Positions 3,250 to 48,597 are shown, counted from the stretch's first letter. The stretch is 64,000 bases of DNA from Patescibacteria group bacterium UBA3466 (GCA_002378195.1 DFRJ01000003.1:32879-96878), one strand, 5' to 3'. Numbers and translations: made by a program. The notes: generated by a model not told the origin, from the letters alone.

Positions 3250-3843
3250 CTAGTGAGCGATGGCTAAACAGATTAGTGTAGTGTTGGTGGGAAGATGAGG
3301 CGCGAGCGTAGCTCGCGCCTCTTTTAGGGTGGTGCCAGTAGTCGAAACATCATCCACAATCACGACGGTGTCGTATTCGTTAAGATTGACGCCTAAGTTG
3401 TTGTATGAAAAAACTCCAGTTAAATTATTTAACCTGTCACTTCTGGCTAGAGTGGTTTGTGGAACAGTGTCACGCAGCTTGGTGAGTAGTTGGTATGAAG
3501 CAAGGTTGCCGATTATTCGTTCAACTTGATTGTATCCTCGTTGTCTTTTTCTTTCTTTGCCCAGCGGGATGGGTACAAATAAAATACGTTGAGCTTGCTG
3601 ATCTGACCATTTTTTTAATAAATACTGCAAGTGCTGGCTGGCTAGAGTGTTGTTGTGGAACTTATTTTCGGTAATGAGAGCCTGCGTGGAGGGGTGAGAG
3701 TATGGCGCGAGGTGGGTGATATGGTCGCGAGTTTGAATGCAGAAAAGTTTATCTAAATCATTTACATCAATATTTTGTATCAATCGCTCGCTTGGTCGCG
3801 GTGGAAATATAATATTGAGTAGTGTTGTGAGTAACTGCTTCAT
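3250..3843 (-). CDS. comF: ComF-family phosphoribosyltransferase-domain protein (competence protein F-like)
   Basis: C-terminal VVIVDDVSTTGTTLKEA PRTase motif characteristic of ComF/ComFC. No N-terminal zinc finger seen. Confidence 0.65.
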   Translation of the reverse strand: MKQLLTTLLNIIFPPRPSERLIQNIDVNDLDKLFCIQTRDHITHLAPYSHPSTQALITENKFHNNTLASQHLQYLLKKWSDQQAQRILFVPIPLGKERKRQRGYNQVERIIGNLASYQLLTKLRDTVPQTTLARSDRLNNLTGVFSYNNLGVNLNEYDTVVIVDDVSTTGTTLKEARATLAPHLPTNTTLICLAIAH

Positions 3844-5760: not shown

Positions 5761-6326
5761 TTCCAAATGGTTTATTTACACAAATCGCCATGGTCATACT
5801 GGCCTTTGCCATCATAGCAACCTATATCCAGCCAACCTTTCAAAATATTGGTGAAACTCAGGACGACATTGCTGTTTACAAAGAGCAAAGAGAAAAAGTC
5901 TCAGAGGTGACAGCCCAGTTGGGCCGATTGCAGGATCAGATTGGTACGGTTTCGCTAGCAGATCAGGCAAAGCTGCTAAAATATATGCCTGAAGAAATCG
6001 ACACTATTTCAGTCATCAGAGACATGCTACTAATCTCTAATGAGGCGGGGGTAGTGTTCTTAGATGCTACATCTAATCCTGACAGTGGCCAGGACAGGTC
6101 TACGAACAATGGACAAACGGATGATCAGCTTACCTCTCAAAAATTTGAGTTGAGGGTCGAAGGGACTTATTCCCAAATTAAAAACCTTTTTGCTTTAATG
6201 GACGCCAATGATTATCCGCTTGAGGTGCATGGCTTAAGTATGACCGAATTAGAAGGCGGCTTCTTGGCGGCAAATGTGACGGTTGTAACTTACGCATTTG
6301 GCGGAGCAGATAAAAACAGTAATTAA
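5757..6326 (+). CDS. PilO-like membrane protein
   Basis: N-terminal TM, coiled-coil region, operon position. Confidence 0.4.
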   Translation: MIPNGLFTQIAMVILAFAIIATYIQPTFQNIGETQDDIAVYKEQREKVSEVTAQLGRLQDQIGTVSLADQAKLLKYMPEEIDTISVIRDMLLISNEAGVVFLDATSNPDSGQDRSTNNGQTDDQLTSQKFELRVEGTYSQIKNLFALMDANDYPLEVHGLSMTELEGGFLAANVTVVTYAFGGADKNSN

Positions 6327-6332
6327 AATAGT

Positions 6333-6641
6333 ATGGGTGAAACAGCAAAAAACTTAATAACTGTCCTTGGTCTAATAACCATAGTTATTGGTGCTTACTA
6401 TTTATTTGTGCAGTACCAATCTGCCCAGTCTAATTCGATGAATAACGAGGTGCAAATTCAGGATGATCTTAATAAAGCCAACGCGTTTATTCAAAAACGA
6501 CAGGCGCTTGATGGAATAGAATTAGATTTTGCGGTCTTAAGTAATGATAATTTCAACAACCTAAGAAGTTTCACTACTCCAATTGAAGAGGTGGAAAAGG
6601 GGCGTGATAATCCTTTTTCAGACGTTGGTAATAATTTTTAA
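6333..6641 (+). CDS. small membrane protein (PilP-like position)
   Basis: N-terminal TM helix. Lies between the PilO-like gene and pilB. Confidence 0.3.
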   Translation: MGETAKNLITVLGLITIVIGAYYLFVQYQSAQSNSMNNEVQIQDDLNKANAFIQKRQALDGIELDFAVLSNDNFNNLRSFTTPIEEVEKGRDNPFSDVGNNF

Positions 6642-6646
6642 GGATT

Positions 6647-8485
6647 ATGGATCCACTGCAAGCATTAAAAGAGAGCGGTAAGGTCGACGATTCTTTGTTG
6701 GCTAAAGTCGAACAACAAATGGCGCATGAAGGCGTCTCGCTTGAAGTGGCTTTGCTTGATGCTGGTTTCCCGGCCGATGATTTGCGGAGTTTCATGGCCG
6801 AGTTTTATCAAGTTCCTGCTTTCGAAATTCCGGCTGGCTTTAGTGTCTCGCAAGAACTGCTCGATTACATCTCTGAAGATTCCGCAACTCACTACCGCAT
6901 GATGCCGCTTAAGGTAGACGACGAAGTGTTGATCATTGGAGTTAACAATCCAGACAATCTGCAAATGCGGGAAGCGCTAAACTTCATCAGCACTAAGCAC
7001 AATTTGCCGTACAAGTTGGTGTACATGCTGGATCGAGATATTGAGAAGGTGCAGGAGTTTTATTCCAACCTTGAAGGTGATGTTGGTCAGGCGCTCGAAA
7101 CATTAGAAACAGAACTAGACGCAGAAATTGCTGCCAGTCTCGAAGAGTCATCAGAAAACTCCAAAGAAGCCCTGGATCACATTGAGGAAGATGCGCCAGT
7201 AACAAAAATCGTAGCCACTATTTTGCGTTACGCAGTAGATGGTAAGGCATCAGATATTCATATTGAACCTAATCCAAAGATAGTAAATGTGCGCTTTCGA
7301 GTCGACGGCTCTTTGGCCAAGAGTCTTGAATTGCCCAAGAATGTCCATATGGCAGTGGTGGCGCGAGTAAAGATTCTGTCGTCAATGCGACTAGATGAAA
7401 GAAGAAAGCCGCAGGATGGTCGTTTTTCAGCTTCGTTTGACAATCATAAGATTGATTTTCGTGTCTCAGTTTTGCCGACCAATCACGGCGAGAAGGTGGT
7501 GATGCGTATTTTGGATACTAGTAAAGGGGTGTTGACGTTGGAGCAGAGTGGAATTTCCAGTGCTAATATGGACGTCATTAAACGGATCGTGCAAGAACCT
7601 TACGGTATTATCTTAATTTCTGGTCCTACCGGATCAGGTAAGTCGACAACTTTACGTGGGATGATTCAAGAAGTGGACACCCTGACAAAAAACGTGATGT
7701 CTCTAGAAGATCCGGTCGAATACAACATGACTGGCGTCAGTCAGTCGCAGGTACGGCCAGAGATTGGTTATACTTTCTCGAAGGGCTTGCGGGCGGCTCT
7801 CCGGCAAGACCCCGACATCATAATGGTGGGTGAGATCAGAGACAAAGAAACTGCCCAGTTGGCAATCCAAGCGGCGCTTACTGGTCACCTGGTACTGTCT
7901 ACCATCCACACCAATAACGCTATTGGAGTGATTCCGCGTTTGGTTGATATGGGAGTTGATCCATACCTAATTGCACCGACTCTAAAAATGGCGATTGCGC
8001 AAAGGTTGGCCAAGACTTTATGTGATGGTACCGGAAAAGAAGAGGATGTTGATGGGGCAACTCAAGCGCGGATTGATGCTGCATTTAAGACCTTGCCACA
8101 AAAGTTTCATGACCGCATTCCTGAGAGCCGAACCATCTTGCGTCCTGAAGTAACAGCCACCTGTCCGACTGGGTATAGTGGACGAACGGCTGTGACTGAG
8201 GTGTTGGAGGTTAACGAAGAGATGCAAGAGCTAATCTTGAAGGGAGCTTCCGAAGAAGAATTCTTTCAGTCAGCTCGTAAGAATGGTTTTGTGACCATGC
8301 AAGAAGATGCCATGATTAAAGCTTTACAGCACGAGATTCCGTATGAAGAAATGAATGTCTTTAGTACCAAGATCGGCTTAGATTCAATTGATGAAGCAGA
8401 GTATGAATCAGTCGATGTCGATAACCTCCAAGAGATAGAAATATCAGAGGCTATAATGGAAAGTGATGAAAGTACTACTAGTTGA
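6647..8485 (+). CDS. pilB: type IV pilus assembly ATPase PilB (GspE family)
   Basis: Walker A LISGPTGSGKSTTL, GspE N-terminal domain, acidic C-terminal tail. Confidence 0.9.
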   Translation: MDPLQALKESGKVDDSLLAKVEQQMAHEGVSLEVALLDAGFPADDLRSFMAEFYQVPAFEIPAGFSVSQELLDYISEDSATHYRMMPLKVDDEVLIIGVNNPDNLQMREALNFISTKHNLPYKLVYMLDRDIEKVQEFYSNLEGDVGQALETLETELDAEIAASLEESSENSKEALDHIEEDAPVTKIVATILRYAVDGKASDIHIEPNPKIVNVRFRVDGSLAKSLELPKNVHMAVVARVKILSSMRLDERRKPQDGRFSASFDNHKIDFRVSVLPTNHGEKVVMRILDTSKGVLTLEQSGISSANMDVIKRIVQEPYGIILISGPTGSGKSTTLRGMIQEVDTLTKNVMSLEDPVEYNMTGVSQSQVRPEIGYTFSKGLRAALRQDPDIIMVGEIRDKETAQLAIQAALTGHLVLSTIHTNNAIGVIPRLVDMGVDPYLIAPTLKMAIAQRLAKTLCDGTGKEEDVDGATQARIDAAFKTLPQKFHDRIPESRTILRPEVTATCPTGYSGRTAVTEVLEVNEEMQELILKGASEEEFFQSARKNGFVTMQEDAMIKALQHEIPYEEMNVFSTKIGLDSIDEAEYESVDVDNLQEIEISEAIMESDESTTS

Positions 8486-19335: not shown

Positions 19336-19986
19336 ATGGAACCTGATCCAATTGAAATTTCTACTGAAGGGAGCTCGCTTGTAGCTACCACTAGTCCACT
19401 ACCTGAGGTGGGTGGGTTTGATATCTTTGCTTATCTGGGTTCATTGTTTGGAAATAGTGAGACATTTGCTAGTTTGACCACCGGCAGTGGTTTTATGAGT
19501 TTTTTAGCTAGTCTGTGGTTGACTGTTGCGATCATTTCTTCCATCTTTTCAATCTTTTTTTTGGTTATTTACGTTTTTGCTTCCATGCGACGAACACTTT
19601 ATCTGGGACTCTTGGCTCAAGAGACAGTTGACCAAGAAGAATTGTGGGCGCAGTTGTACGGACAGCGGTCAGAAAATAATCGTATTAAGAGTGTTTTGGC
19701 AAACGCAGCTTCGAGTAACCCGAATGATTGGAAATTGGCGATTATTGAAGCTGATATAATTTTAGATGAGACGCTGAAAGAGAGGGGTTTCGTGGGGGAT
19801 TCATTGGGTGAGAGGTTGAAGTCGGTATCGGCTAACCAGCTTGCATCAATCGGCGATGCTTGGGAAGCGCACAAGGTTAGAAATAATATTGCGCACAAAG
19901 GCGCAGACTTTGTTCTCACTAAGAGACTGGTAGACGAAACAATCGGTCGTTACCAAAGAGTTTTTAAAGAGTTTGGATTGATGTAG
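19336..19986 (+). CDS. hypothetical membrane protein
   Basis: Long ORF, one strong TM helix (LWLTVAIISSIFSIFFLVIYVF). No recognisable motif. Confidence 0.35.
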   Translation: MEPDPIEISTEGSSLVATTSPLPEVGGFDIFAYLGSLFGNSETFASLTTGSGFMSFLASLWLTVAIISSIFSIFFLVIYVFASMRRTLYLGLLAQETVDQEELWAQLYGQRSENNRIKSVLANAASSNPNDWKLAIIEADIILDETLKERGFVGDSLGERLKSVSANQLASIGDAWEAHKVRNNIAHKGADFVLTKRLVDETIGRYQRVFKEFGLM

Positions 19987-20041
19987 TTGCTAATCTGAGC
20001 TAAATAGTGTATTTTCTATACCTACTGATTCGCTCAGAAAC

Positions 20042-20096
20042 AGCGGGGTGGAGGAGAGGTACCGAGCGGAAAGATTATCTGACTCATAACCTCCCG
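20042..20096 (+). repeat. partial 5' copy of tRNA-Met (acceptor-5' and D-arm 22/22 nt identical, then a degenerate anticodon-arm)
   Basis: agcggggtggaggagaggtacc is identical to the first 22 nt of the tRNA at 20138. ctcataacctcc recurs. Confidence 0.5.
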
Positions 20097-20137
20097 GGGT
20101 TTCGCTAAAGAGGGAGTAGAAGTAAAAAATAATATCC

Positions 20138-20208
20138 AGCGGGGTGGAGGAGAGGTACCTCGGGAGGCTCATAACCTCCAGACCCCGGTTCGATTCCGGG
20201 CCCCGCAA
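20138..20208 (+). tRNA. tRNA-Met (anticodon CAT)
   Basis: Manual cloverleaf fold. D-stem gagg/cctc, anticodon stem ggagg/cctcc with loop ctCATaa, T-arm cccgg-ttcgatt-ccggg, A73. Position 1:72 is an A:A mismatch. Confidence 0.8.
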
Positions 20209-20210
20209 CA

Positions 20211-20250
20211 AATACAAATAAGACCAGCTTCGGCTGGTCTTATTTGTATT
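20211..20250 (+). terminator. terminator hairpin after tRNA
   Basis: aaatacaaataagaccagc ttcg gctggtcttatttgtatt. Confidence 0.7.
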
Positions 20251-20408
20251 ATGAATGCGGAGGCTAGAGAGCCAACTGCTTGGCTCTCGTCGGAATCGAA
20301 CGGTCGGAGCGGTGTGAGTTTACGAACGAGCGAGACGGGGTCGAGAGTACTTACTAGAATTAGAGCGAAGCGAATTATTATAGTTAGTAACTCGTGACTC
20401 GATTCCGG
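20251..20408 (+). repeat. tRNA-associated structured repeat, copy A
   Basis: About 90% identical over about 97 nt to 23967-24070. Hairpin at 20266-20287. Left part cggaatcgaac is the reverse complement of the tRNA-Met T-loop. Ends with tcgattccgg (20399-20408), a direct copy of that T-arm. Confidence 0.55.
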
Positions 20409-20549
20409 TTGCTACAGAACCAGTACACCTTTTGGAAATTGAAATTTCTCAAAAGGTTTTACAAAAACTTCCCAAGTTTTTTCACCCCGCAACAAGTTAA
20501 CAAAAGGTCGCGAGCAAAGCTCGCGACCTTTTGCTATAATCCAAGCCAT

Positions 20550-21278
20550 ATGCAATGTGTAATTCTAGCGGCCGGAAAAGGAAGTCGCCTAAAACCTTTA
20601 ACAGAAAATACTCCAAAGCCACTAGTAAAAGTAGCTGACAAATCTTTGCTCGACCACATCGTTGAAGCGCTTCCGAGCGCTGTCGATAGCCTCATTATCG
20701 TGACTGGCTACTTAGAAGACCAAATTCGTGACCATTGTGGCGATGAATTTCATGGTCGTAAAGTAACTTACGTGCACCAGGAAGAGCAGAAAGGTACAGC
20801 TCACGCACTCTGGCTGTGTAAGGAGCACTTGATCGGTAAAGGACGTTTTTTGTTTATGTATGCCGATGATCTTCATGGTGCTCAAGATATAGCGAGAGCT
20901 ACTTCGTACTCTCGTTCTATGCTAACGCTGACTACCAATAATCCAGAAAAGTTTGGTATTGTAGTGCGTCATCCTGACGGTACCCTAGCAGAAATGATAG
21001 AAAAACCAGAACATCCGCCTTCAAACCTAGCGTCGACCGGAGTGATGGTGCTTGATGATAATATCTTTAAGTTTGACCCTTACGCAAAGATGACCAAGGG
21101 AGAGTACTACCTAACCGACGTGATTGCTGAGTATGCTCGAGAATATCCGATTGCGGTGGTAGAGCAGGGGTTGTGGATTCCGATAGCTTATCCGGAAGAC
21201 ATTGAAAGAGCGGAAGAGATTTTAGAATCTTTCAAAGGTACTATTGGAGGAAATGTATTGAAGCAAACGACAAAATAG
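20550..21278 (+). CDS. sugar-phosphate nucleotidyltransferase
   Basis: MQCVILAAGKGSRLKPLT...KPLV motif. Start chosen at the ATG preceded by a TATAAT box. The ORF track extension 20394-20549 overlaps the repeat. Confidence 0.7.
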   Translation: MQCVILAAGKGSRLKPLTENTPKPLVKVADKSLLDHIVEALPSAVDSLIIVTGYLEDQIRDHCGDEFHGRKVTYVHQEEQKGTAHALWLCKEHLIGKGRFLFMYADDLHGAQDIARATSYSRSMLTLTTNNPEKFGIVVRHPDGTLAEMIEKPEHPPSNLASTGVMVLDDNIFKFDPYAKMTKGEYYLTDVIAEYAREYPIAVVEQGLWIPIAYPEDIERAEEILESFKGTIGGNVLKQTTK

Positions 21279-21306
21279 TGTACTCTAGCGCCACACAGAG
21301 GAAATA

Positions 21307-21330
21307 ACTTTCCTCATTTGCTGATGTAAG
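21307..21330 (+). repeat. upstream partial copy of tRNA 5' flank (tcctcatttgctgatgtaag)
   Basis: Near-identical to 21391-21410, which spans the promoter-proximal sequence and the first nucleotides of the tRNA at 21400. Confidence 0.4.
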
Positions 21331-21399
21331 CAAAGCTTGCCTCAGCGGCATTCGGAACTAGAATATAAAAGTTAACTTTGATATTCTGATTCCTCATTT

Positions 21400-21473
21400 G
21401 CTGACGTAGCTCAGTTGGTTAGAGCGTAGGACTCATAAACCTAAGGTCGGAGGTTCAATTCCTCCCGTCAGCA
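21400..21473 (+). tRNA. tRNA with CAT anticodon (Met, or Ile2 if lysidinylated)
   Basis: Manual fold. gctgacg acceptor, D-arm gctc/gagc, loop ctCATaa, T-arm ggagg-ttcaatt-cctcc, 3' acceptor cgtcagc, A73. Confidence 0.8.
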
Positions 21474-21506
21474 CAAGAAAATCCCTCCGGGGATTTTTTG
21501 TTGACG
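21474..21506 (+). terminator. terminator hairpin
   Basis: aaaatccctccggggatttttt. Confidence 0.7.
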
Positions 21507-21605
21507 GAGTAAGTGCTGGGAGCACTTACGTGGGGAGTTGAAAAGGTTGCCAGTTAGTTTTGAACGAAGTGAGAAAACTAACGACAACCTGTACTGAACC
21601 TGTAA

Positions 21606-21656
21606 GGTTCAATTCCTCCCGTCAGCACAAGAAAATCCCTTCGGGGATTTTTTGCT
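21606..21656 (+). repeat. direct duplicate of the tRNA 3' half plus its terminator
   Basis: ggttcaattcctcccgtcagcacaagaaaatccc(t)tcggggattttttg matches 21451-21500 with one change. Separated from the tRNA by a 100-nt spacer that contains its own hairpins. Confidence 0.6.
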
Positions 21657-21677
21657 GACTGTTGGTATAATAATCTT

Positions 21678-21905
21678 ATGAATGCAACAACCATTATCGG
21701 AATTATCGGAGCATCTCTTATCCTTGTAGCATTTATTTTAAATCAAACAGGGGAGTGGTCGAAAGACTCGTTCTCATATGACCTTGTGAATGCTGTCGGG
21801 TCAGCTGTATTAATTTACTACGCCTACTTACTTACCAGCTACCCGTTTATGGTTTTAAACGGAGTGTGGTTCGTAATTTCATTTAAAGATTTGCTGAGAA
21901 GGTAG
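21678..21905 (+). CDS. small membrane protein
   Basis: 75 aa with two predicted TM helices. Confidence 0.3.
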   Translation: MNATTIIGIIGASLILVAFILNQTGEWSKDSFSYDLVNAVGSAVLIYYAYLLTSYPFMVLNGVWFVISFKDLLRR

Positions 21906-21968
21906 ATACAATTAATACACATAAAAATGACAAAGCCGCTGTTAAGCGGCTGTAGAAAGTTGTCCCGG

Positions 21969-22808
21969 TTATACACCAGGAGTGAATCCGATGAGTACCT
22001 TCTTGCGATTTGGGTCACCGAGGGATTGTGCTATGAGAGAGGTGTATTTACTCTCCAGTTGTCCAGCAGCGGCTTGGGCTTCAAGCATGCGGATCGTTCT
22101 CTCGAGCGGTATTCCAGCTTTGTACGGTCGGAAGGCCATCAAAGCTTCAAGTACATCAATTACGGCAAAGAATTTACCAGCAAAAGATATCTCTGAAGCT
22201 TTGAGTCCTCTTGGATATCCGCTCCCGTCGAGTCTTTCGTGATGTTCTAGGGCGCAGTCAGACAAAAATCTCACTAAAGGGTTGAAGTCAATTACAGACA
22301 AACCGTTTATTTGATCAATGAAGATGCTGCCACGATTCTCGATAATTTGGCTGGATAGGGTGGTGTGGGCTTGCTGCTCGATCATTTCCTCCTGGGTTAA
22401 TCGGCGATCAAGCTCATAGATCTTGTTCCACTTTGGTTTAGCTATATCGTGCAAGTATGCCGCTAGACCAAATAAAGACCTGCCACATGGGTTTAAGACA
22501 AATCCATCAGGTGTTTCTTCAAAAAAAATACCCTTCAGGATTACATTCTGCAGATATGCGTCAGAAAAAGAATCAACCTCCTCTTCAGACCAGATCAACC
22601 AGCCTGCTACATTTTTTGCAATGAGAGACGTGTTGTGCGAATGATTTCGCATTGAAGTAATCATTTCGACCATATCTACTTCTGCTTGGTCTTTAAACCA
22701 GAGCAAAAATCTAGATAAGTCGGAACATACTTCGTTGACGTCTCGGTTACTTACGGCAACGTTCAAGCATAGACTTATCAGATCTTTAGACATGGTGTTT
22801 AACCTCAT
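21969..22808 (-). CDS. HD-GYP domain c-di-GMP phosphodiesterase
   Basis: HD...HHERLDGSGYP signature. Confidence 0.75.
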   Translation of the reverse strand: MRLNTMSKDLISLCLNVAVSNRDVNEVCSDLSRFLLWFKDQAEVDMVEMITSMRNHSHNTSLIAKNVAGWLIWSEEEVDSFSDAYLQNVILKGIFFEETPDGFVLNPCGRSLFGLAAYLHDIAKPKWNKIYELDRRLTQEEMIEQQAHTTLSSQIIENRGSIFIDQINGLSVIDFNPLVRFLSDCALEHHERLDGSGYPRGLKASEISFAGKFFAVIDVLEALMAFRPYKAGIPLERTIRMLEAQAAAGQLESKYTSLIAQSLGDPNRKKVLIGFTPGV

Positions 22809-22892
22809 GCTGGGTTATTTGTGAAAGATCTACCGCTATAAAAACACTACATTTAAAATCAGGTATCGTCAATAGTAATTTCAAGAGTATTC

Positions 22893-22921
22893 TTTTGTGT
22901 GCGATTGAAGGGATTCGAAAC
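22893..22921 (-). repeat. degenerate copy of tRNA-Asp 3' end (T-arm and acceptor)
   Basis: gcgattgaagggattcgaaac versus gcggtcgaagggattcgaaccc at 23005-23026. Confidence 0.45.
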
Positions 22922-22965
22922 TTACAGTTTCAGTACCTCAAATGTGTGTCCCGCACACAATTTCA

Positions 22966-22999
22966 ATCGACCACAAAAAAATCCCTAACGGGATTTTTT
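22966..22999 (-). terminator. terminator for tRNA-Asp (minus strand)
   Basis: aaaaaatcccgttagggattttttt on the minus strand. Confidence 0.6.
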
Positions 23000-23003
23000 A
23001 CTG

Positions 23004-23077
23004 CGCGGTCGAAGGGATTCGAACCCTCGGCCTTCCGCGTGACAGGCGGATGCTCTAACCAGCTGAGCTACGACCGC
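23004..23077 (-). tRNA. tRNA-Asp (anticodon GTC)
   Basis: Reverse complement folds as gcggtcg acceptor, D-arm gctc/gagc, anticodon arm tccgc-ctGTCac-gcgga, T-arm gaggg-ttcgaat-ccctt. Confidence 0.85.
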
Positions 23078-23141
23078 AAAGAGTGGCAAGAGTATAGCTG
23101 GTTTGCGTAATTTTTGCAATAACTATTGCTATAATTTAAAT

Positions 23142-23741
23142 ATGAAATTAAATCGCATTCAAAAAGGGTTGCTGCTAGTAAATATCGCTGTTGTGGTTGG
23201 GTTTAGTTGGTATTACTTGCAGGCGGCAGATTATGAGTTTCTAGCTTATGCGGGCACGATAGCAGTTGTGACAGCTCTTTTATTCGGTACTCTTAAATGG
23301 TCGCGGTTTTCAAATGGAATTATTCTCGGGGTGACTATTTGGGGACTGTTGCATATGCTCGGAGGTAGTGTGATGACGGCCGACGGAGTATTGTATGCAT
23401 GGCGGATCTTCCCATTTTTTGATGGTGGCGGAGAGTTTTATATTCTGAAGTTTGATCAAGTAGTACACGCGTTCTTGTACGGTATTGTCGGTTTGATGTT
23501 TTATCACCTGTTGCGTGAAGTGGTTGGAGTTAAAACTCACACACTACTAGTAGCAGCGGTAGCTATCTTTGCTGGAGCTGGCTTTAGTATTATCAACGAG
23601 ATCATCGAATTTCTGGCGGCGGTAAATATTCCAAATACTGGAGTAGGGGGCTATCACAATACCGTGCTTGATATGATTTTCAATTTAGCTGGAGCATTGA
23701 TAGCTGTGGTTATTAAGGTGGGTATCGATAAACGTAACTAG
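23142..23741 (+). CDS. hypothetical multi-pass membrane protein
   Basis: Five or six hydrophobic helices. No motif recognised. Confidence 0.35.
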   Translation: MKLNRIQKGLLLVNIAVVVGFSWYYLQAADYEFLAYAGTIAVVTALLFGTLKWSRFSNGIILGVTIWGLLHMLGGSVMTADGVLYAWRIFPFFDGGGEFYILKFDQVVHAFLYGIVGLMFYHLLREVVGVKTHTLLVAAVAIFAGAGFSIINEIIEFLAAVNIPNTGVGGYHNTVLDMIFNLAGALIAVVIKVGIDKRN

Positions 23742-23812
23742 CAAAAGATTTCTCGATTTGTTATGCTATCACGGCTTGTAATACCGAGCGGTAGTTTTGC
23801 TTATTATTACTT

Positions 23813-23885
23813 GCCAACGTAGCTCAGTCGGTAGAGCGCATCCATGGTAAGGATGAGGTCCGCGGTTCAATCCCGCGCGTTGGCT
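23813..23885 (+). tRNA. tRNA-Thr (anticodon GGT)
   Basis: Manual fold. gccaacg acceptor, D-arm gctc/gagc, anticodon arm catcc-atGGTaa-ggatg, T-arm cgcgg-ttcaatc-ccgcg, 3' acceptor cgttggc. Confidence 0.85.
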
Positions 23886-23887
23886 CA

Positions 23888-23926
23888 GCAGCAAAATTCC
23901 CTAGCATCCGCTAGGGAATTTTGCTG
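23888..23926 (+). terminator. terminator hairpin
   Basis: gcagcaaaattccctagc atcc gctagggaattttgctgc, a perfect 18-bp stem. Confidence 0.7.
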
Positions 23927-23930
23927 CCTG

Positions 23931-24091
23931 GCAACGCAGGAAGCAAACTGCTTTGCTTCCGGTAGGGATTGAAGGTCGCAGCGATGTGAGTTTGCGAACA
24001 AGCGAGACGGGGTCGAGAGTACTTACTAGAATTGGAGCGTAGCGAACAATTATAGTTAGTAACTCGTGACCAATCCCGCGCGTTGGCTCAG
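23931..24091 (+). repeat. tRNA-associated structured repeat, copy B, ending in a 21-nt direct copy of the tRNA-Thr 3' end
   Basis: Hairpin at 23939-23960 covaries with the copy A hairpin. gggattgaa is the inverted tRNA-Thr T-loop. caatcccgcgcgttggctcag (24071-24091) equals 23867-23887. Confidence 0.55.
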
Positions 24092-24093
24092 CT

Positions 24094-24124
24094 AAATGCC
24101 TAGCTTCTTGCTAGGCATTTTTGT
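24094..24124 (+). terminator. second terminator-like hairpin after the partial tRNA copy
   Basis: aaatgcctagc ttctt gctaggcattttt. Confidence 0.5.
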
Positions 24125-24140
24125 ATACTCAACTATCACT

Positions 24141-25019
24141 ATGAGTACTGAATTTCAATCTTCAGAAAATCGCATAGCCTCCATTGAGGCAGCCATGCTT
24201 CAGCCAGATTTTTGGAATGATCCGCAAAAGGCACAAGAGTTGATCAAAGAACTGCAAGAGTTAAAGGATTTGGCGGATGGCAAAGGCAAGTATCATCGCA
24301 ATGATGCAATTTTTTCGATTGTAGCAGGGGCTGGAGGTGATGATGCGGAAGACTTCGCGCGTATGCTAGTGGAGATGTATCAGAAGTATGCTGAGAGCAA
24401 GAGTTGGGATGTGGTGATAATCGACAGTAATGCCAACGACCATAATGGTTACCGCAATATCACTTTCGAAGTCCAAGGGAAGGATGCCTACGGCACACTG
24501 ATGCACGAGTCCGGGGTGCATCGTTTGGTGCGTATCTCACCTTTTAATAGTAACGGAAAGAGACAGACTTCTTTTGTCTTGGTCGAAGTGTCGCCGAAGC
24601 TCGAAGATCTGAGTTCAGTGGAGCTGAGTGAAGAAGATTTAGATATTTCTTTTGCGCGCTCTGGCGGCGCTGGTGGGCAGAATGTAAACAAGCGAGAGAC
24701 GGCGGTGCGAATTGTGCATAAGCCAACCAATATCTCCGTCAATATTTCATCTGAACGCTCACAAATGCAAAATCGGGAGAAGGGGATGAATTTGTTGGCC
24801 GGTAAGATATATGCTTTCAATGAAGCGCAGCGCGAACGTGAACTGCAAGGGCTAGCGGTTGAGAAGACTCTTAAAATTGAATGGGGGAGCCAGATTCGTT
24901 CGTACGTTTTGCACCCATATCAGATGGTGAAAGATCATCGTCATGATCTAGAAGTGAGAAATGTAGATAAAGTATTAGACGGTGATATACAACCGTTTAT
25001 AGACATTTATAATAATTAA
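24141..25019 (+). CDS. prfB: peptide chain release factor 2, short form with no evident frameshift site
   Basis: SPF tripeptide (RISPFNS) and GGQ motif ([11 protein letters not shown]). Confidence 0.8.
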
Positions 25020-28641: not shown

Positions 28642-28795
28642 CCTGCAAGAAAACACCCTTTTGGGTGTTTTCTGTTTGAGCAGGCTACCCGACAAGAAAT
28701 AATCTGGGGGATTATTTCGTGGGACTCGAAAAGCGGTTTGAGATATTTTGGAGCTAGCGAACAAAATATCCAAACGCTGCACAGAATCTGTAAGA
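28642..28795 (+). repeat. repeat R1, copy a: long hairpin that pairs the tRNA-Gln 3' end, plus a conserved core of about 80 nt
   Basis: tagcctgcaagaaaacaccc tttt gggtgttttctgtttgagcaggctacccgac. About 85% identical to 49152-49285. Confidence 0.5.
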
Positions 28796-28814
28796 TTCGA
28801 GTCCCTGTCGGGTA
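28796..28814 (+). repeat. direct copy of tRNA-Gln 3' end (ttcgagtccctgtcgggta)
   Basis: 19/19 nt identical to 28622-28640. Confidence 0.55.
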
Positions 28815-29002
28815 AACAAGCACTTGGACCCAGGTTTATTTTTTCTTGTGCGAGAACATTTATTCAGTGATCGACAAGTTTTGACTTATATACAAATTAT
28901 TCACAGTTTATGCACAAAAAATTATTGTTGTAGTGTGTTCACATAAAAGCTAATGTTAAAGGGTCTTTTACGCTAGAAAGTTTATACAACTAAAAGTCCA
29001 TC

Positions 29003-35000: not shown

Positions 35001-36208
35001 CTACTTCAATCGGAGGAGTGTCAGTTAGTTATGATGACAATGGAAACGTGACAGCTTTCGGTTCTGATTCTTATACCTGGAACTATCGAAATGAGTTAAT
35101 TGAATCAGATGTGAATGGGGCGACTACTACCTATGCTTACGATCATAATGGTGATCGAGTGAGTAAATCATCTGATGGAAATACCACATACTATGTTTCA
35201 AGTATGTATGAAGTAGAGGACAGTGATATTACTAAGCATGTGTACCTTGGAGATATGCTGGTAGCAACCATTGAGTCTGACGGTTCTGCTGATGAGATCC
35301 ATCATAATCACCTTGATCATCTCAATTCAACCAATGTGGTCACTAATGCTTCGGGAACAGTTGATCAACTACTCAGCTACTATCCATTTGGATCGATGAG
35401 GGTAGATCAGAAGTTAGGGACGGTGGATCAGAGCAAGCGCCATACCGGCCATGATTATGATGAAGAAACGGATCTAAACTATATGGGTGCAAGGTATTAC
35501 GCCGGCGACACTGGACGCTTTACCTCTCAGGATCCGGTATCCCTAGCTCTGGGAGATTGGAAAACAGTTCAGGACAAGACTGGAGGTAATTTAGCCTTTT
35601 ATCTTCAAAATCCGCAAACCCACAACTCCTACAGCTACACAGCAAATAATCCGCTGAAGTATGTTGATAAGAATGGTGAATTTATCTGGTTTGCCCCTGC
35701 TGTCATATATGCTCCTCAAATATTGGCTGGTCTAGCAGCTTTGTCGACACCATTAGGTGTGGCTATGTTGGTGGATGATTATCAAACCCTGACTAATAAC
35801 CCTGATGGTCTAGATCTTGCTCTCATTGCTGTACCAGGAGTCTTAGGTAAGGCTGGAGATGTAGCGAAAGTCTCGATGAACAGAAATGCTTGGTCTGCAG
35901 GACGAGCAGGTAATGCTCAGAATAGCTTAACTAATCACTTTAAGGATCATGGGGAATTGTTAGGTGCTAAGTCAGCTCAGGAGTATTACGACAGAGCTAA
36001 TGACGCTATGAAACCAGGTAGTGGTTTTACGAGATTGGAGAATGCTGATGGAAAGGTCGATTATTACAATCCAAGTAACAGAGAGTTGGTTGGCTTAAAT
36101 GAAAAAGGTCAAATATCTACGTATCATAAAGTTACGAATACAAACAAAGCTGAAGGACTTGATTATCGGGTTAAGAAGAAGCAAAATGAAAAGAATGGAG
36201 GAGGATAA
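29003..36208 (+). CDS. giant RHS/YD-repeat polymorphic toxin with SpvB-like N-domain and FG-GAP repeats (fused TcB/TcC-like)
   Basis: Signal peptide/TM. SpvB-like motif at YPVLYPSGVNGFGPSHNLSYSSNS. At least six VDVNGDGLAD-type FG-GAP repeats. Many YDYD/YEYD YD repeats. RHS core ending YMGARYYAGDTGRFTSQDP. C-terminal variable domain of about 230 aa. Confidence 0.85.
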   Translation: MLHKNICRSEFIRSRRTLFKATSLLIVVSVLLAPIAHVYGFHPDNDSSLVNNDLLISKNVSSLSDNGVQVNSFDGSLSYSYPVLYPSGVNGFGPSHNLSYSSNSKEEYSILGIHGWNLDIPSIKLINKTGIENLYSDPVYYSSISGELVQVGVSSEYISKNESGDFHSYTLSNGVWTISTKSGDVYTLGSTSASRIVNPNDSSEIYAWYTNEIVDTNGNSIDYSYYKDNESLLIDTIEYGGIYEIDFERVSKNSTSTTHEATFEINQTKAVDRIQVIVDGQDEYYYDLTLTSAVNPNHVLLTQIDMVGGSDQLTTEFTYNDNSLMPFSADQDDDGANGKWDIGNGKWLYEKGASNKWRFVDVNGDGLADFVGDGDVYLNDGEEFVFNLTWSTALIDFIYDDTLSLRFPDINGDGLVDIIYSTDEAYNTGWFSDVYLNNGSGWTYDASFDESLATNSARFAFVDTDGVDDLGWRVIDVNGDGLADLIHDNDLNYPDNTNAVYINDGSEWTLSSDFIIPADNGFALHNAYGFIIDINGDDLPDLVSSYEVNSSWVKRVYVNTGTGWVDHDGFKNSLPAAFVDDPGSSSNFIDHGYRLVDINNDGLADIAWQTDSGSNRLRYYLNLGDSWDTTFTETACCNPGWGQKLQYGATAFVDINGDSLIDILSAHKISSSNKLDSIHIAAGGKPDVLTEVVNQHGGTTKVFYKGSQETVSGSQRNVDLPIALYVVASTTKDNGFGQVIETLYDYDYGEIYFDTADLRDRRFGGFGEFTEEVVGLNKTIVNFHQGNDLDSSSEEESDGEHLIGRMYQTKITNNSDSLYLLNRVNYSTTSLGDGSVFTKTDSVVELAYDGDVDERAKAVSYTYDDTHGSVLSMVEYGEVNGNSDGTYTDSGTDKRTSLYEYATSSDGLVAVTKETLNDNSNTKIQESVYYYDDLTYGSAALGNLTKREDWVTGATFVDTEWDYNSNGLVTTETDPKGNAINYDYDTYNLYLASSTNAEGHSSLYEYDYVFGNLSTTTNPNGELFVTEFDDLGRPITIVGPDPQTGSPVVITEYEYTDTVGAVSTKQINHLDETISNDVYSYFDGFGRIIQERVEAEDSNEYVVRDIVYGDNGLVSKESLPFYDMGSARSSAQTDTDLLSQYTYDALGRVTALTTAVGTSNTSYDQWKETHTDTENNDVSFEYDAYDQISIVTENEGLNSYTTEYDWNPRGDLVTITDAEGNERNIVYDGLSRRTSLEDLHDTSDTSFGTWSFVYDDAGNLTQKTDPESHVVNYTYDDINRILTEDYTGESGTEITYSYDSCTNGIGYICSITDTDMTTSYAYTANGLTESETRLLNSTSYVTSYDYNRQGDQTEVTYPDSSVVKYTYHKGRNVDKIEQKEDGDSFAEIISDLNYGPHGLVEFMEHSNGIETTRTYRADELYRLSNIVSVATSSGTGSGGDAHRTLEAELFELTEAMVTEEAVETVEELVLEERAEERIVTSEIVEEVVEEIEPVEQSATISSSTEEIQIQDDIQNVETSTSTENLEQSSFDNVIEEPVLLPTQSDSTEEMIKTESKDKKILGKQEKARLIYEKTKRKSHDRDKYKIDIVDMNEVEDGVAVFARVWDRGEQIGFGQDGTVDIERFIFKNPPISVPDKSVTYTYELDGETFSAYGFKEDPEEALLQSLEHVIEAKKLKFNDEKIKQGKVGNTTTTFYPSAGQSSPVDGGLIQWFAGGTSWSSIRNDTTSSWVHDDIDGVGAFNTAQIYDGYNGAWNGMSRGVFGFDTSSLGSDTIDAVTLSIHGSAKTDGYSGADVVVDRVVPASNSSLAVGDFDLTNWDETLQSDTRITISAWDNTDYNDFVLNSIGEGNINSSGISWYGVRHGMDFDDAEPTRISTNSRIITRYADANGTSEDPKLIVEHTGSAAGSSGSGIQSLEYEYDSVGNITKITDTSSTTLLGEVDYIYDDLYRLASASTTNSATSSYLRNFTYNSIGNILTKTGGGTYVYAGDTGTNYANPHAATSIGGVSVSYDDNGNVTAFGSDSYTWNYRNELIESDVNGATTTYAYDHNGDRVSKSSDGNTTYYVSSMYEVEDSDITKHVYLGDMLVATIESDGSADEIHHNHLDHLNSTNVVTNASGTVDQLLSYYPFGSMRVDQKLGTVDQSKRHTGHDYDEETDLNYMGARYYAGDTGRFTSQDPVSLALGDWKTVQDKTGGNLAFYLQNPQTHNSYSYTANNPLKYVDKNGEFIWFAPAVIYAPQILAGLAALSTPLGVAMLVDDYQTLTNNPDGLDLALIAVPGVLGKAGDVAKVSMNRNAWSAGRAGNAQNSLTNHFKDHGELLGAKSAQEYYDRANDAMKPGSGFTRLENADGKVDYYNPSNRELVGLNEKGQISTYHKVTNTNKAEGLDYRVKKKQNEKNGGG

Positions 36209-39067: not shown

Positions 39068-40813
39068 CTATTTATAGCATGGTTCTTCTGATTTTTCTGA
39101 GAAGGTGTCAAATTCTTTCCTATTAACCGGAATTGATCCACCGATTGGTCCTTTTGGCTTCTTAAGTCGTTCAGAATAAGGAATTTTATCTTTGATACAA
39201 TACTCGATGTTAGTTGTCTCGATTTTTTTGTTTACTTCAACTTCTACTGGTACCGAGCCGTGGTATTCAACTTTATCATTGTAGTAAACAACCTTGTTTG
39301 TAAAATCAAGGAGAAATTTACGTCTAGTGTCAAAGTCATAGCATTTCCTGTATCTAGCTTTAGCCTCAGTACAGTACTTCTTCACTGCGATATCAACGAT
39401 ATCTTTTTTGTGCAAGAGTGGAATCTTTTTCAGCAACTCTTGTTTCTCCAGTTTTAACTTATTAATCGTATTATCAAGTTCTAGACTCTTATCTACGTAT
39501 TCATTTCTATCAATTTCGCTGGAAGTATAAATATCAATCAGTCGCTTTTTTGTTAGCTCAATCTTCCTCATCTTCTCTTCGTTTGACTTTATTTTCTTGT
39601 TGAACCGTATCTCATTTGCTTGTACTCGACGCTTGAAATGGCTCATGCACGCCTTCAGTTTCCTGTCACTAAACAGATGACTCTCAATCATAGTGAAGAC
39701 TTTCTCCTCAAGAACCGATCCCTTAATAGCAATATTGTCACAAGGTTTCATTTTCGGCCTGTTCTTCTCAGCATGCATATATTTGCTGAATTTATAATTG
39801 CATTTATATGAAAGCTTGTAGTACGCCTTGGGTTTTTTCATACGTTTATCTACGTAGTAACGCCGATTAGCAAAGATGCTCCCGTCACAGCACCCGCATC
39901 GCACTAGGGAAGAAAGCATTTGTGGGACTCTCGGGTTCCTATATCTTTTTCGATTATGTTCTAGTTTCGTTTGAGCCTTATTGAATAGTTCTTTTGAGAT
40001 AATTGATGGTACTGGTACTCCAATCCATTCACTACGATCTCGCTTAACTACCTTGGTTTTATGTTCTGAACTAGTTAAACTTTTCTTTTTCATTGTGTTG
40101 TAGTAACGGACTCCGGTATACATTTCTTGGTTTAGCATGGCTTTGATAAGCGATACTCTCCACAGTCCTCGACCTTGTTTTGTTGGGGCGTTCATTTCTT
40201 CTAATTGCTGACACATTTTGTTCATACCAATTTCACCATTGGTGTAGGTTTCAAATATCCAGCGGACTATCTTTGCTTCTGTTTCATTTATAGTATATGA
40301 AGGAGGTGACGTTTGGGTTCTGCGGTGATGATCATAACCATACACCTGGCATCCATTTCCAGAGAGAGTACCTTGGCTAATACGAAGCTGTTTCGACCGC
40401 ATCACTCGTTCTACAATCTTTGCTCTTTCTAGTTCCGCGACGGCCCCTAGGACAGTAAGAGTAAATTTGTTTTCAGGATTATGAACGTAGTCTTTCCCGT
40501 TGATGATTATCTGTTTTTTGTATTTAAGAATCTCAGCAATAATAATCGTTTGATAGGTCACTTCTCGGGCTATACGATCTGTATTTAGAAAATAGATGGT
40601 ATCAAATTGCTTCGTTTTTAGATCCTCACGAAGCTTATTCATGGCAGGCCTGTCTAACTCAGCTCCACTATAACCATCATCAATGTATTCCTTGACTAAG
40701 ATGTGGCCAGCTTCAGCTATTTGTCTTTTTAATGCTTCAATCTGGCTTTCAATGGTTTTATCCCTTCTTTGCAAGGACGAACTCACCCTTGCATATAATG
40801 TTGCTCGTTTCAT
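39068..40813 (-). CDS. large serine recombinase
   Basis: N-terminal resolvase catalytic domain (LYARVSSSLQ with the Ser nucleophile), recombinase domain, CGCCDG...C zinc ribbon. 581 aa. Confidence 0.85.
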   Translation of the reverse strand: MKRATLYARVSSSLQRRDKTIESQIEALKRQIAEAGHILVKEYIDDGYSGAELDRPAMNKLREDLKTKQFDTIYFLNTDRIAREVTYQTIIIAEILKYKKQIIINGKDYVHNPENKFTLTVLGAVAELERAKIVERVMRSKQLRISQGTLSGNGCQVYGYDHHRRTQTSPPSYTINETEAKIVRWIFETYTNGEIGMNKMCQQLEEMNAPTKQGRGLWRVSLIKAMLNQEMYTGVRYYNTMKKKSLTSSEHKTKVVKRDRSEWIGVPVPSIISKELFNKAQTKLEHNRKRYRNPRVPQMLSSLVRCGCCDGSIFANRRYYVDKRMKKPKAYYKLSYKCNYKFSKYMHAEKNRPKMKPCDNIAIKGSVLEEKVFTMIESHLFSDRKLKACMSHFKRRVQANEIRFNKKIKSNEEKMRKIELTKKRLIDIYTSSEIDRNEYVDKSLELDNTINKLKLEKQELLKKIPLLHKKDIVDIAVKKYCTEAKARYRKCYDFDTRRKFLLDFTNKVVYYNDKVEYHGSVPVEVEVNKKIETTNIEYCIKDKIPYSERLKKPKGPIGGSIPVNRKEFDTFSEKSEEPCYK

Positions 40814-48573: not shown

Positions 48574-48597
48574 CGTAGCGAATTAGAAAAAGCGGGA

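Follow-up and report, generated by a model that had tools for sequence, protein, structure and literature searches.

Folded non-coding elements behind tRNA and tmRNA genes of Patescibacteria: candidate site-specific insertion cassettes

Several kinds of mobile DNA make use of the ends of tRNA and tmRNA genes. Genomic islands, whether driven by a tyrosine or serine integrase, of the tycheposon type or integrase-less and cis-mobilizable, insert at these 3' ends and occasionally at that of a protein gene. They bring in a replacement 3' end, leave a partial copy of the original behind and stack up by repeated insertion; tycheposon-like islands typically show stacked insertions together with partial tRNA repeats (bioRxiv 10.1101/2020.12.28.424599). 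A second group acts through folded single strands and includes integron attC sites, the CTX phage attP, IS200/IS605 elements with their miniatures, and REPINs. These are strand-specific, structured, non-coding and dependent on functions supplied in trans; they are cut beside hairpins at positions set by base pairing and occur as many small copies per genome. Pairing also governs group I introns (the P1/P10 guide) and group II introns (exon-binding sequences), in which a strand of the element pairs on both sides of the joint, as well as IS110 elements, in which a non-coding bridge RNA at the element end specifies the target.

The DNA analyzed here (the window) is a stretch of 64,000 nt from Patescibacteria group bacterium UBA3466. 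It contains two segments, both on the plus strand, of what is termed here family A: previously undescribed, phylum-wide folded non-coding elements in Patescibacteria, located behind tRNA or tmRNA genes. The segments behave as small insertion cassettes and not as ordinary spacer DNA. Each is best explained, with a probability of roughly one half, as a non-coding, non-autonomous, site-specific insertion cassette. The features of the two copies are as follows.

20138..20209, plus strand: tRNA-Met (CAT), target gene 1 (ARAGORN; Rfam tRNA 56 bits), without encoded CCA; read as a putative initiator from its unpaired 1-72 position
20190-20209, plus strand: gene-proximal copy (A1) of tRNA-Met, T-loop to 3' end
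20211..20250, plus strand: perfect 18-bp hairpin directly 3' of tRNA-Met, terminator-like in appearance
20251..20266, plus strand: degenerate distal arm, antisense to the tRNA-Met acceptor 3' strand, pairing imperfectly with 20199-20209
20267..20288, plus strand: accessory hairpin gagagccaa-ctgc-ttggctctc with a CTGC tetraloop
20291..20301, plus strand: proximal arm cggaatcgaac, antisense to tRNA-Met 53-63 (T-loop and T-stem 3' strand); perfect 11-nt inverted repeat with 20188-20198
20302..20398, plus strand: family-A core 1, a three-way junction (covariance-model score 104.3 bits)
20399..20408, plus strand: distal copy A2, tcgattccgg, repeating the T-loop and T-stem of tRNA-Met in direct orientation, identical to 20190-20199
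23813..23886, plus strand: tRNA-Thr (GGT), target gene 2 (ARAGORN; Rfam)
23868-23888, plus strand: copy A1 of tRNA-Thr
23888..23927, plus strand: perfect 18-bp hairpin 3' of tRNA-Thr
23929..23938, plus strand: distal arm tggcaacgca, antisense to the tRNA-Thr acceptor 3' strand
23939..23960, plus strand: accessory CTGC-loop hairpin ggaagcaaa-ctgc-tttgcttcc
23965..23973, plus strand: proximal arm gggattgaa, antisense to ttcaatccc (23866-23874) of tRNA-Thr
23974..24070, plus strand: family-A core 2 (covariance-model score 111.3 bits)
24071..24091, plus strand: distal copy A2 of tRNA-Thr, caatcccgcgcgttggctcag, C56 to the 3' end, identical to 23868-23888
24094..24120, plus strand: second hairpin and T-run after the tRNA-Thr A2, just 5' of a gene for release factor 2 (from its PCRF and RF-1 domains)

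All elements reported by the first-pass annotation (cores, hairpins, arms and direct copies) are present in the sequence, including the inverted T-loop copies beside each tRNA and the direct copies 3' of the cores. Its estimate of about 90% identity between the core segments holds, the two 97-nt cores aligning without gaps at 92%, but its start of the second core at 23967 is corrected to 23974. A 30-mer from the core has only two sites in the window, where shuffles expect 0. Both stem strands of the CTGC-loop hairpins differ between the copies with pairing kept, as described before; the strongest covariation, however, lies inside the core. Core 1 terminates in ...ACUCGUGAC, and the A2 copy behind it, which pairs with the arm to give P1, stops after 10 nt, with the identical truncation in the relative L132. 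The tRNA-Thr A2 is a perfect direct copy of 21-22 nt. Each 18-bp hairpin forms the apex of a longer hairpin that joins the tRNA 3' end to the arm. The region 20186-20303 folds at -74.5 kcal/mol (z = -13.2) and 23864-23975 at -67.9 kcal/mol (z = -8.3), which for a read-through RNA makes pairing of the arm with the upstream tRNA end far more stable than the modelled junction, at -36 and -43 kcal/mol.

The distribution of family A was assessed with one pattern scan of species-representative genomes. Because the pattern was fixed on 21 core bases, the invariance of those bases in the sample is built in. The scan returned at least 120 loci, almost all labelled Patescibacteria; the exceptions are a single chance match, a contig assigned to a Patiriisocius bin, and several entries with no label beyond "bacterium". 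A same-strand tRNA (96) or tmRNA (8) lies within 450 nt upstream in 104 of 117 assessable copies, which bears out the suggestion that copies abut tRNAs, and one copy sits in the 3' end of a protein gene. Divergent copies, found independently, are likewise downstream of a same-strand tRNA or tmRNA in 22 of 32 cases, and most of those with a recovered 3' end terminate in GAC. Of 183 tRNAs taken from family-A loci, 62 have their 3' end directly repeated downstream and 2 upstream, and an antisense 12-mer lies downstream of 65 and upstream of 3. The layout seen in the window is shared by more than 100 further genomes. Given this recurrence, the downstream bias of the repeats and the match of the arm to its own gene in 86 of 88 loci, the tRNA-flanking arrangement exceeds chance. 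The window also holds a second family (B), with an unrelated core and the same layout, behind its other three tRNAs, and all five window tRNAs carry a cassette of family A or B.

Related genomes show gain and loss of cassettes. The tRNA-Thr(GGT) site is filled in the window and empty in L132 and L136, in line with the expectation that relatives with empty tRNA sites should exist. The tRNA-Gln gene is followed by family B in the window and by family A in L132, and tRNA-Asp by a short family-B-like form in the window and by family A in L134. Near-identical cores bear different arms behind different tRNAs, as in the window pair and in L017 versus L087. Tandem and mixed arrays occur, as do orphan and truncated copies. 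Within the window's own population, the release factor 2 protein is carried by 19 contigs, and at 10 of the 10 places listed the spacing around the tRNA-Thr copy is the same, with no empty allele; the predicted empty tRNA-Thr site gave zero matches in a metagenome scan. The copy behind tRNA-Met, in turn, is kept in place between genera: its ortholog in L132 has undergone at least 4 double compensatory changes that preserve the fold, although the neighbouring spacer DNA is unalignable. That a resident copy is under purifying selection suggests that it has a function at its site and counts against a purely selfish, already-inserted element.

These observations bear on the possibility that family A is a host RNA module of tRNA operons, serving as a processing signal, a stabilizer or a read-through quality control, with duplication and loss giving only the appearance of mobility. 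The full occupancy of the window's tRNAs, the same signals at about 40% of bystander tRNAs at other loci, the maintenance of the copy behind tRNA-Met 20138-20209, and the 44% of copies without a terminator-like hairpin before the core, which would be co-transcribed, all agree with it. Nevertheless, the same tRNAs lack a cassette in close relatives, different families occupy one tRNA in different relatives, some copies are orphaned or truncated, one target is a protein gene, and an antisense arm would disturb the folding of a tRNA transcribed along with it. A host module is considered quite improbable.

Equally improbable is that the copies are leftover ends of integrase-driven, tRNA-targeting islands comparable to tycheposon-like arrays. 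The core would then represent the conserved end of an island beside attR, such as an attP arm or a small regulatory RNA, and the short cassettes would be derivatives with internal deletions. Partial tRNA repeats and stacked insertions resemble those of such islands (bioRxiv 10.1101/2020.12.28.424599), and two loci offer further points in its favor. At L056, the sole case with a recombinase between tRNA and core, about 6 kb lie between tRNA-Ser and the arm, core and flank, and this insert begins with a large serine recombinase gene adjoining the tRNA. In the window, an island of about 20 kb with a large serine recombinase lies behind tRNA-Gln and is followed by a partial tRNA-Gln. However, such cargo occurs in only 1 of 117 copies (an integrase is absent in 116), no recombinase or other protein family recurs beside family-A copies, and the relatives of the recombinase in viral contigs have no core alongside. 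Decaying relics would not be expected to keep helices by compensatory change, and serine-recombinase joints should share a central dinucleotide, whereas the joints described below do not. A possible decayed tRNA piece 5' of the L056 arm suggests that the island there was inserted later.

The two joints of family A are UU/C and AC/C (the slash marks the joint). In class 1 the joint in the target lies in the T-loop between positions 55 and 56, and in class 2 inside the acceptor 3' strand, at about C72. The T-loop proposed earlier as the target is therefore correct for class 1, but the acceptor 3' strand, tmRNA and one protein gene are targets as well. The direct repeat is either short (3-6 nt) or longer (19-22 nt) and stops where the gene does, typically running from C56 to the tRNA 3' end in the longer form; at the protein-gene target (L107) it is 49 nt long and terminates at the stop codon. 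The arm begins at U54 and the flank copy at C56, so that the arm overreaches the joint by 2 nt, straddling it with 2 nt on one side and at least 9 nt on the other. The same overreach is found at acceptor-stem sites and at the protein gene. Complementarity of the arm to the upstream gene runs uninterrupted for 11.2 nt on average (maximum 24), compared with 5.6 nt to the flank, and in the 86 loci noted above the fit of the arm is closer to the real upstream gene than to its copy downstream. Over positions 56-64, mismatches to the tRNA number 27 in the arm and 84 in the flank; downstream copies are often decayed or truncated. The flanks are thus tailored to each target, as the first-pass annotation held, but its account of a core bracketed by inverted repeats covers just half of the arrangement, since the arm pairs better upstream. 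An arm abutting the flank with no intervening core was not found among the family-A loci.

The consensus fold of the core obtained with RNAalifold is a three-way junction, with double changes at 20 of 29 pairs. Paired cells amount to 94.3% compared with 76.1% in shuffles, the covariation score is 0.456 compared with 0.125, and slid controls reach 31-35% paired. P2 bears an internal loop, GGA/GA, along with a hairpin that varies, J23 reads GGG, and a long hairpin makes up P3. RRA and GGG form the joining strands, and the 3' joint reads GAC/C. Joining strands and internal loops are invariant and purine-rich, and the helices covary. In 102 of 107 cores the fold of the sense strand is the more stable of the two, and G-U pairs number 216 in sense and 56 in antisense. 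The CTGC-loop hairpin is optional: 39 of 116 copies have it, compared with 4 in the downstream control, and the L132 ortholog does not.

One reading of this fold, considered somewhat unlikely, takes the core for a small ribozyme of a new kind and the cassette for an intron-like element with a 3' exon copy of its own. The arm would act as an internal guide, pairing first with U54, U55 and the first bases of the cassette and then with the downstream copy, thereby aligning the joints NN/C and GAC/C for transesterification or for cleavage and re-ligation. Spread would proceed by the reverse reaction into a tRNA, followed by copying into DNA. The RNA-like conservation of purine-rich joining strands, internal loops and covarying helices, the sense-strand folding with many G-U pairs, and a topology of open stem, hairpin, hairpin and joint as in the type I hammerhead are consistent with this, and the 2-nt overreach would place the 5' exon end exactly at the 3' joint. 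There is no protein partner in cis, and the in-place purifying selection resembles that on self-splicing introns; group I introns without a HEG are, moreover, common in Patescibacteria (PMC13011429). Against these points, the upstream tRNA is complete and splicing is never needed, and the frequent decay or truncation of downstream copies would make spliced products useless. A terminator-like hairpin stands between gene and core in 53 of 95 copies, so transcription of the core may be weak. The core lacks the hammerhead core sequences and matches no ribozyme family, a protein-coding gene is among the targets, and the DNA copy step would require a reverse transcriptase, of which none was seen.

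Database searches are in keeping with the earlier statement that the element matches no known family. With Rfam 15, no match overlapped the cores at E up to 1 (positions 19500-24600), and eight diverse loci gave only tRNA, tmRNA and chance matches at E up to 0.1. Phage and plasmid records contained no family-A match, viral contigs only chance matches to the core. No enzyme for the cassette, and no free or excised form of it, was found.

The strand specificity of the fold could also reflect a single-stranded DNA recombination site of a cassette mobilized in trans, for which integron attC, the CTX phage attP, and IS200/IS605-type and REPIN-type elements serve as models. A tyrosine or HUH enzyme from elsewhere would cut the continuous strand at GAC/C, with P3 stacking on P1. 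In agreement with this, the continuous strand passes from P3 directly into P1 at the joint, insertions and arrays exist at the DNA level and include a protein-gene target, the tRNA-end/arm region is an extremely stable hairpin, terminators precede many cores, and no transcription signal of its own was found, there being no promoter-like site 5' of the window copies. Hairpin tips in family-A cores are often GCGAAGC or GCGTAGC, and such tips are very stable as DNA. On the other hand, no recombinase of tyrosine or HUH type was found near any copy or in the window, which also has no Y1 HUH transposase gene. Consensus boxes of the attC type are lacking, insertion of known HUH elements produces no direct repeat, and unpaired positions are conserved phylum-wide, far above attC or REP elements. 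G-T pairs in DNA are less tolerated than G-U pairs in RNA, yet about 2 occur per copy. This reading is judged unlikely.

In the preferred reading, the insertion cassette, followed 5' to 3' on the tRNA-sense strand, begins with a replacement copy of the target's 3' end, from C56 in class 1 and from about C72 in class 2. It continues with a usually present, often terminator-like hairpin, an optional CTGC-loop hairpin, the arm antisense to the target from U54 on, and the three-way-junction core of about 100 nt ending in GAC. It sits between target positions 55 and 56, with the displaced original 3' piece behind the core, and the gene remains intact. The arm probably serves as an internal guide whose pairing bridges the joint, covering 2 nt 5' of it and at least 9 nt 3' of it. 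The junction may stack P3 on this guide helix, which would bring the 3'-terminal C of the cassette beside C56. The folding molecule is most likely RNA produced by read-through from the tRNA promoter, with top-strand single-stranded DNA an admissible second candidate, and joining would be catalyzed by a recombinase from another part of the genome or else by the folded RNA. The cassette reading does not account for the way in which arms become matched to new targets, and this counts against it, as do the failure to find an enzyme, a free or excised form or an empty allele in the window's own population, the lack of a promoter-like site 5' of the window copies, the terminator-like hairpins before many cores, and the higher stability of the arm's pairing with the upstream tRNA end relative to the junction. 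Of the three options offered by the first-pass annotation, a miniature non-autonomous element homing to tRNA T-loops fits best, and its interpretation is partly supported.

Compared with islands at tRNA and tmRNA 3' ends, family A shares the targets, the replacement 3' end, the partial copy left behind and the stacking of insertions, and a direct repeat of the tRNA 3' part is found at both ends. It differs in its size of 150-250 nt, in carrying no gene and in the near-complete absence of an integrase, and its phylum-wide folded core and antisense arm are not features of known att sites. A MITE can be rejected, since shared terminal inverted repeats and a fixed target duplication are absent and the arms and flanks follow each target.

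With attC, CTX attP, IS200/IS605 elements, their miniatures and REPINs, family A has in common that it is strand-specific, structured, non-coding and probably trans-dependent, with a putative cut site beside hairpins set by base pairing and with many small copies per genome. In contrast to attC and HUH elements, its unpaired bases are highly conserved, its arm covers 10-24 nt instead of 4-5 nt, a direct repeat of the gene end is present, and no cognate enzyme was found. An integron attC is rejected: the R''/R' boxes (RYYYAAC...GTTRRRY) are absent, and the arms follow the local tRNA while the core is conserved. As for action of the attC type, the fold is strand-specific, a property open to RNA and DNA alike, and no integrase lies near family-A copies. 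The direct repeat argues against membership in IS200/IS605-type miniatures or REPINs.

Among RNAs, no Rfam 15 family gives a covariance-model match at or near threshold. The likeness to the type I hammerhead is one of topology only (open stem, joining strand, hairpin, joining strand, hairpin, joint); its CUGANGA and GAAA strands and NUH site are replaced by RRA, GGG and GAC/C. IS110 bridge RNA is, as proposed for family A, a non-coding RNA at the element end with target-specifying pairing, but it has two internal loops, split donor and target guides and an adjacent recombinase gene, whereas family A has one continuous arm and no adjacent DEDD recombinase gene, and membership is rejected. A group I intron is rejected as well: the catalytic core (P3-P9, guanosine site, usually >200 nt) is absent from a 97-nt core with two hairpins, a complete tRNA precedes the cassette, and there is no Intron_gpI match. 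Compared with introns of groups I and II, the core of about 100 nt is without catalytic architecture and the gene is not interrupted; compared with group I, the pairing is reversed, with 2 nt on the 5' side and a long 3' side. Like an intron guide, the family-A arm spans the joint, and it could pair alternately with the cassette's own first bases or with the exon-like downstream copy. The guide alignment proposed for family A would follow the principle seen in intron guides and at the ends of guide-dependent transposons.

The window contains five tRNA genes identified with ARAGORN, none of which encodes the 3' CCA (0/5). Two of these genes are targets of family A, a group of cassettes sharing a folded core of about 100 nt (97 nt in the window), and each copy is read here as a non-autonomous insertion cassette. 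The family-A features of the window are the following:

20138-20209, tRNA-Met, family-A target (ARAGORN)
20302-20398, family-A core behind tRNA-Met
23813-23886, tRNA-Thr, family-A target (ARAGORN)
23974-24070, family-A core behind tRNA-Thr

The order of parts is identical behind both tRNAs. A perfect 18-bp hairpin comes first. Next come a region with a weak antisense match to the acceptor 3' strand, a CTGC-loop hairpin, and a 9-11 nt arm exactly complementary to the T-loop and the 3' strand of the T-stem in its own tRNA. The 97-nt core follows, and last comes a direct repeat of the tRNA sequence that starts at the T-loop, called here the flank or downstream copy. The sequence spanning T-loop to arm forms a branched hairpin of great stability (-74.5 kcal/mol with z = -13 behind tRNA-Met, -67.9 kcal/mol with z = -8 behind tRNA-Thr), much stronger than the fold of core plus flank. 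The two cores are 92% identical, and the window holds no further copy. The description in the first-pass annotation is borne out, including the two similar cores; only the start of the second core moves, from 23967 to 23974. Chance or low complexity as the origin of the pattern is ruled out, since it recurs in other genomes and stands out against shuffled controls. Directly upstream of the intact tRNA-Met gene lies a decayed partial copy of it (20042-20137), of which bases 1-22, the anticodon loop, and some of the T-arm survive.

A scan of one genome per species with a two-anchor core pattern yielded at least 120 loci. Leaving aside a single chance match, a contig binned as Patiriisocius, and several entries named simply "bacterium", all carry the label Patescibacteria; among the hosts are Saccharibacteria, Paceibacterota, and Nomura-, Kaiser-, Yonath-, Woese-, and Zambryskibacteria. 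The window belongs to a marine relative of Nomura/Kaiserbacteria: its release factor 2 is 84-86% identical to their proteins, and the contigs matching it are from Tara. A covariance model of family A recovered 32 more, divergent copies. No Rfam family matching the core was found, family A was absent from the phage and plasmid records searched, and the viral contigs searched gave chance matches only, with no family-A core near viral-contig relatives of the recombinases. The literature search for such elements turned up only anticodon-loop group I introns and tRNA-targeting islands. The covariance model of family A offers a ready-made marker for Patescibacteria.

Among the copies listed, 104 of the 117 assessable ones lie within 450 nt downstream of a tRNA (96) or tmRNA gene (8) on the same strand. 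The remainder are mostly array members behind other cassettes, truncated copies, a copy behind a 6-kb island (locus L056), or a copy in a protein gene (locus L107). In L107, the cassette (core at about 3685-3750, reverse strand) sits within the 3'-terminal part of a protein-coding gene, and its perfect direct repeat of 49 nt ends with the stop codon; tmRNA genes precede several other cassettes (loci listed with L107: L066, L085, L110, L079, L096, L098, and L047). The divergent copies again lie behind tRNA or tmRNA genes in 22 of 32 cases, and most of those with a recovered 3' end finish in GAC. A terminator-like hairpin is present in 53 of 95 copies. Partial tRNA matches at L034 (3962-4016, model positions 10-63) and L108 (6602-6661, model positions 6-65) may be interrupted or decayed tRNA genes. 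No protein family recurring beside family-A copies was found among their neighbours; that the copies are the ends of ordinary integrase islands, as the island of L056 might suggest, is very unlikely. A serine-recombinase product is rejected because no dinucleotide is common to both joints.

Comparison with relatives, proposed by the first-pass annotation, does reveal element-free tRNA loci. In L132, a relative of the window, the tRNA-Met ortholog is filled, while tRNA-Met2, tRNA-Asp, and tRNA-Thr(GGT) are empty; tRNA-Gln carries family A in L132 and another family in the window, and tRNA-Thr(GGT) is also empty in L136. The metagenomes scanned for the predicted empty tRNA-Thr allele did not yield an empty allele from the window's own population. 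Arrays of identical or differing cassettes occur in L007, L042, L062, L108, and L134, and near-identical cores are found behind different tRNAs with differing arms and hairpins. Set beside these filled and empty sites, a host RNA module appears highly improbable. The tRNA-Met cassette of the window has its ortholog in L132. The two tRNAs share 99% identity, the hairpins about 85%, and the P3 helices of the core about 78%, with four or more compensatory double changes in P3; the flank is truncated in both, and the next spacer DNA is unalignable. The resident copy is therefore under selection, and in this it is closer to self-splicing introns than to relics in decay.

The relation of arm and flank to the target is informative. 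The unbroken complementarity of the arm to the real upstream gene averages 11.2 nt (up to 24), compared with 5.6 nt to the downstream copy, and is the longer of the two in 86 of 88 loci. The arm starts at U54 and the downstream copy at C56. In a second class, the joint falls within the 3' strand of the acceptor stem, near 71/72; the arm again overreaches by 2 nt, as in the T-loop class, and this overreach recurs in the protein gene of L107. As a rule, the direct repeat extends from the joint as far as the 3' end of the gene, over 19-22 nt, or 3-6 nt in the acceptor-stem class. Over positions 56-64 in 57 copies, the arm is nearly perfect (27 mismatches to the tRNA), compared with 84 mismatches in the flank, whose mutations concentrate close to the joint. 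An arm adjoining a flank without the core between them was looked for across the copies and never found, which rules out a palindromic att site that the core entered later. Fold-back synthesis of the flank from the arm is rejected for the tRNA-Thr copy, since its flank matches the tRNA perfectly over 21 nt and its distal arm is imperfect and broken by a hairpin. Nor was the arm copied from the tRNA's own 5' strands, as its antisense match continues through the T-loop and, in the family-B cassette behind tRNA-Gln, even through the discriminator base. Spare-part repair of damaged tRNA 3' ends is unlikely, given how many downstream copies have decayed or been cut short. In the insertion-cassette reading, the cassette would supply a new 3' end in place of the original, in many copies together with a terminator-like hairpin, and the target gene would therefore remain whole. 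The arm would act as an internal guide spanning the joint, and the core would keep the 3' end of the cassette on the guide helix. The data establish how the cassettes are built, where they occur, how they fold and that they turn over; the guide role, the type of folding molecule and the catalyst are inferred.

An alignment of 100 family-A copies gives a three-way junction. P1 is the pairing of arm and flank and is followed by three unpaired bases and P2, in which G-N-C pairs with G-N'-C and N/N' covary through all four pairs. P2 also contains a GGA/GA internal loop and a variable hairpin, and GGG joins it to P3, a long hairpin whose 3' strand, ...CUCGUGAC, continues unbroken into the flank strand of P1. 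Paired cells amount to 94.3%, compared with 76.1% after shuffling and 31-35% with slid partners, and double changes occur at 20 of 29 pairs. In 102 of 107 cores, the fold of the tRNA-sense strand is the more stable one compared with that of its complement, with four times as many G-U pairs, which indicates that one strand folds, namely the transcribed-sense strand. The simplest reading is that the folding molecule would be RNA, with top-strand DNA as a second candidate. A folded single-stranded DNA recombination site is unlikely, and a new small ribozyme is slightly less so. Protein coding on the opposite strand, prompted by a recombinase ORF running antisense through the core in L056, is excluded by out-of-frame hairpin lengths and covarying helices. 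A kissing contact of the CTGC loop with the GCAG variant of P2 was dropped, as no association was found.

The window also carries a second family, B, and an island with a recombinase:

21475-21659, 22889-23002 (minus strand), and 28644-28816, family-B cassettes behind tRNA-Met2 and tRNA-Gln plus a shorter cassette behind tRNA-Asp
39068-40813, minus strand, large serine recombinase in the tRNA-Gln island

Family B has the same layout as family A (hairpin, antisense arm or arms, structured core, direct tRNA copy from the T-loop) with a different core, which ends in ...GTACTGAANCTGTAA; the shorter tRNA-Asp cassette shares its ...CTGTAA end. Its small hairpin GAAxC-TGTAA-Gx'TTC covaries at x. The family-A covariance model, run on the window, did not detect the family-B cassettes; similar cassettes occur in L080, L108, and L134. 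At the 5' end of tRNA-Met2 (21310-21399), a mirror-image arrangement comprises a displaced copy of the 9-nt leader and tRNA-Met2 bases 1-12, a 3-nt loop, an antisense arm (gcttgcctcagc), and a palindrome; a promoter-like TTGCCT-16-TAGAAT (21337-21364) would drive the real tRNA-Met2. The island of about 20 kb behind tRNA-Gln (28817-49272) also encodes a 2401-aa RHS/teneurin-type protein, a DNA methylase, an S24 peptidase, and TIR and caspase domains. At its end, a fragment resembling the recombinase C-terminal coding region (48506-48584) adjoins a partial tRNA-Gln 3' end (48598-48616), and beyond lies an older truncated family-B left half (49173-49272, 86% identical to 28648-28747). A 213-nt direct repeat (89% identity) has one copy in the 3' part of the giant gene (35482-35694) and the other at the start of ORF 47506-48174 (47505-47717), and a 28-nt palindromic repeat, CATGTTACGTAGCATGCTACGTAACAAG, occurs at two distant sites (2342-2381 and 50354-50381). 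In L056, two large serine recombinase ORFs (119-1801 and 6167-7891) each run antisense into a tRNA-Ser 3' end, one entering the real gene and the other a displaced copy plus a family-A core; integration may thus alter their C-termini.

Patescibacteria account for much of the diversity of bacteria, with genomes that are tiny and tightly packed. Despite this compactness, a sizeable fraction of their tRNA and tmRNA genes bear cassettes. The resulting partial tRNA copies and long palindromes, which the cassettes account for, will mislead the annotation of tRNAs and the detection of islands there. Should the arm truly serve as a guide, this would be a compact, protein-free-looking module of about 100 nt that chooses a nucleic-acid target via base pairing, either a new ribozyme class or a new type of substrate for a recombinase yet to be named.

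A conjectural proposal, less probable than not by a wide measure, is that families A and B form a new RNA class whose very small members act as catalysts or guides, self-contained "exon-carrying introns" in which the RNA itself joins or swaps 3' ends. The internal guide would bring the T-loop or acceptor end of a tRNA into line with the ends of the element itself, and the spare 3' end and terminator would bring the host cost to zero, which would explain the saturation of tRNA genes in highly reduced genomes.
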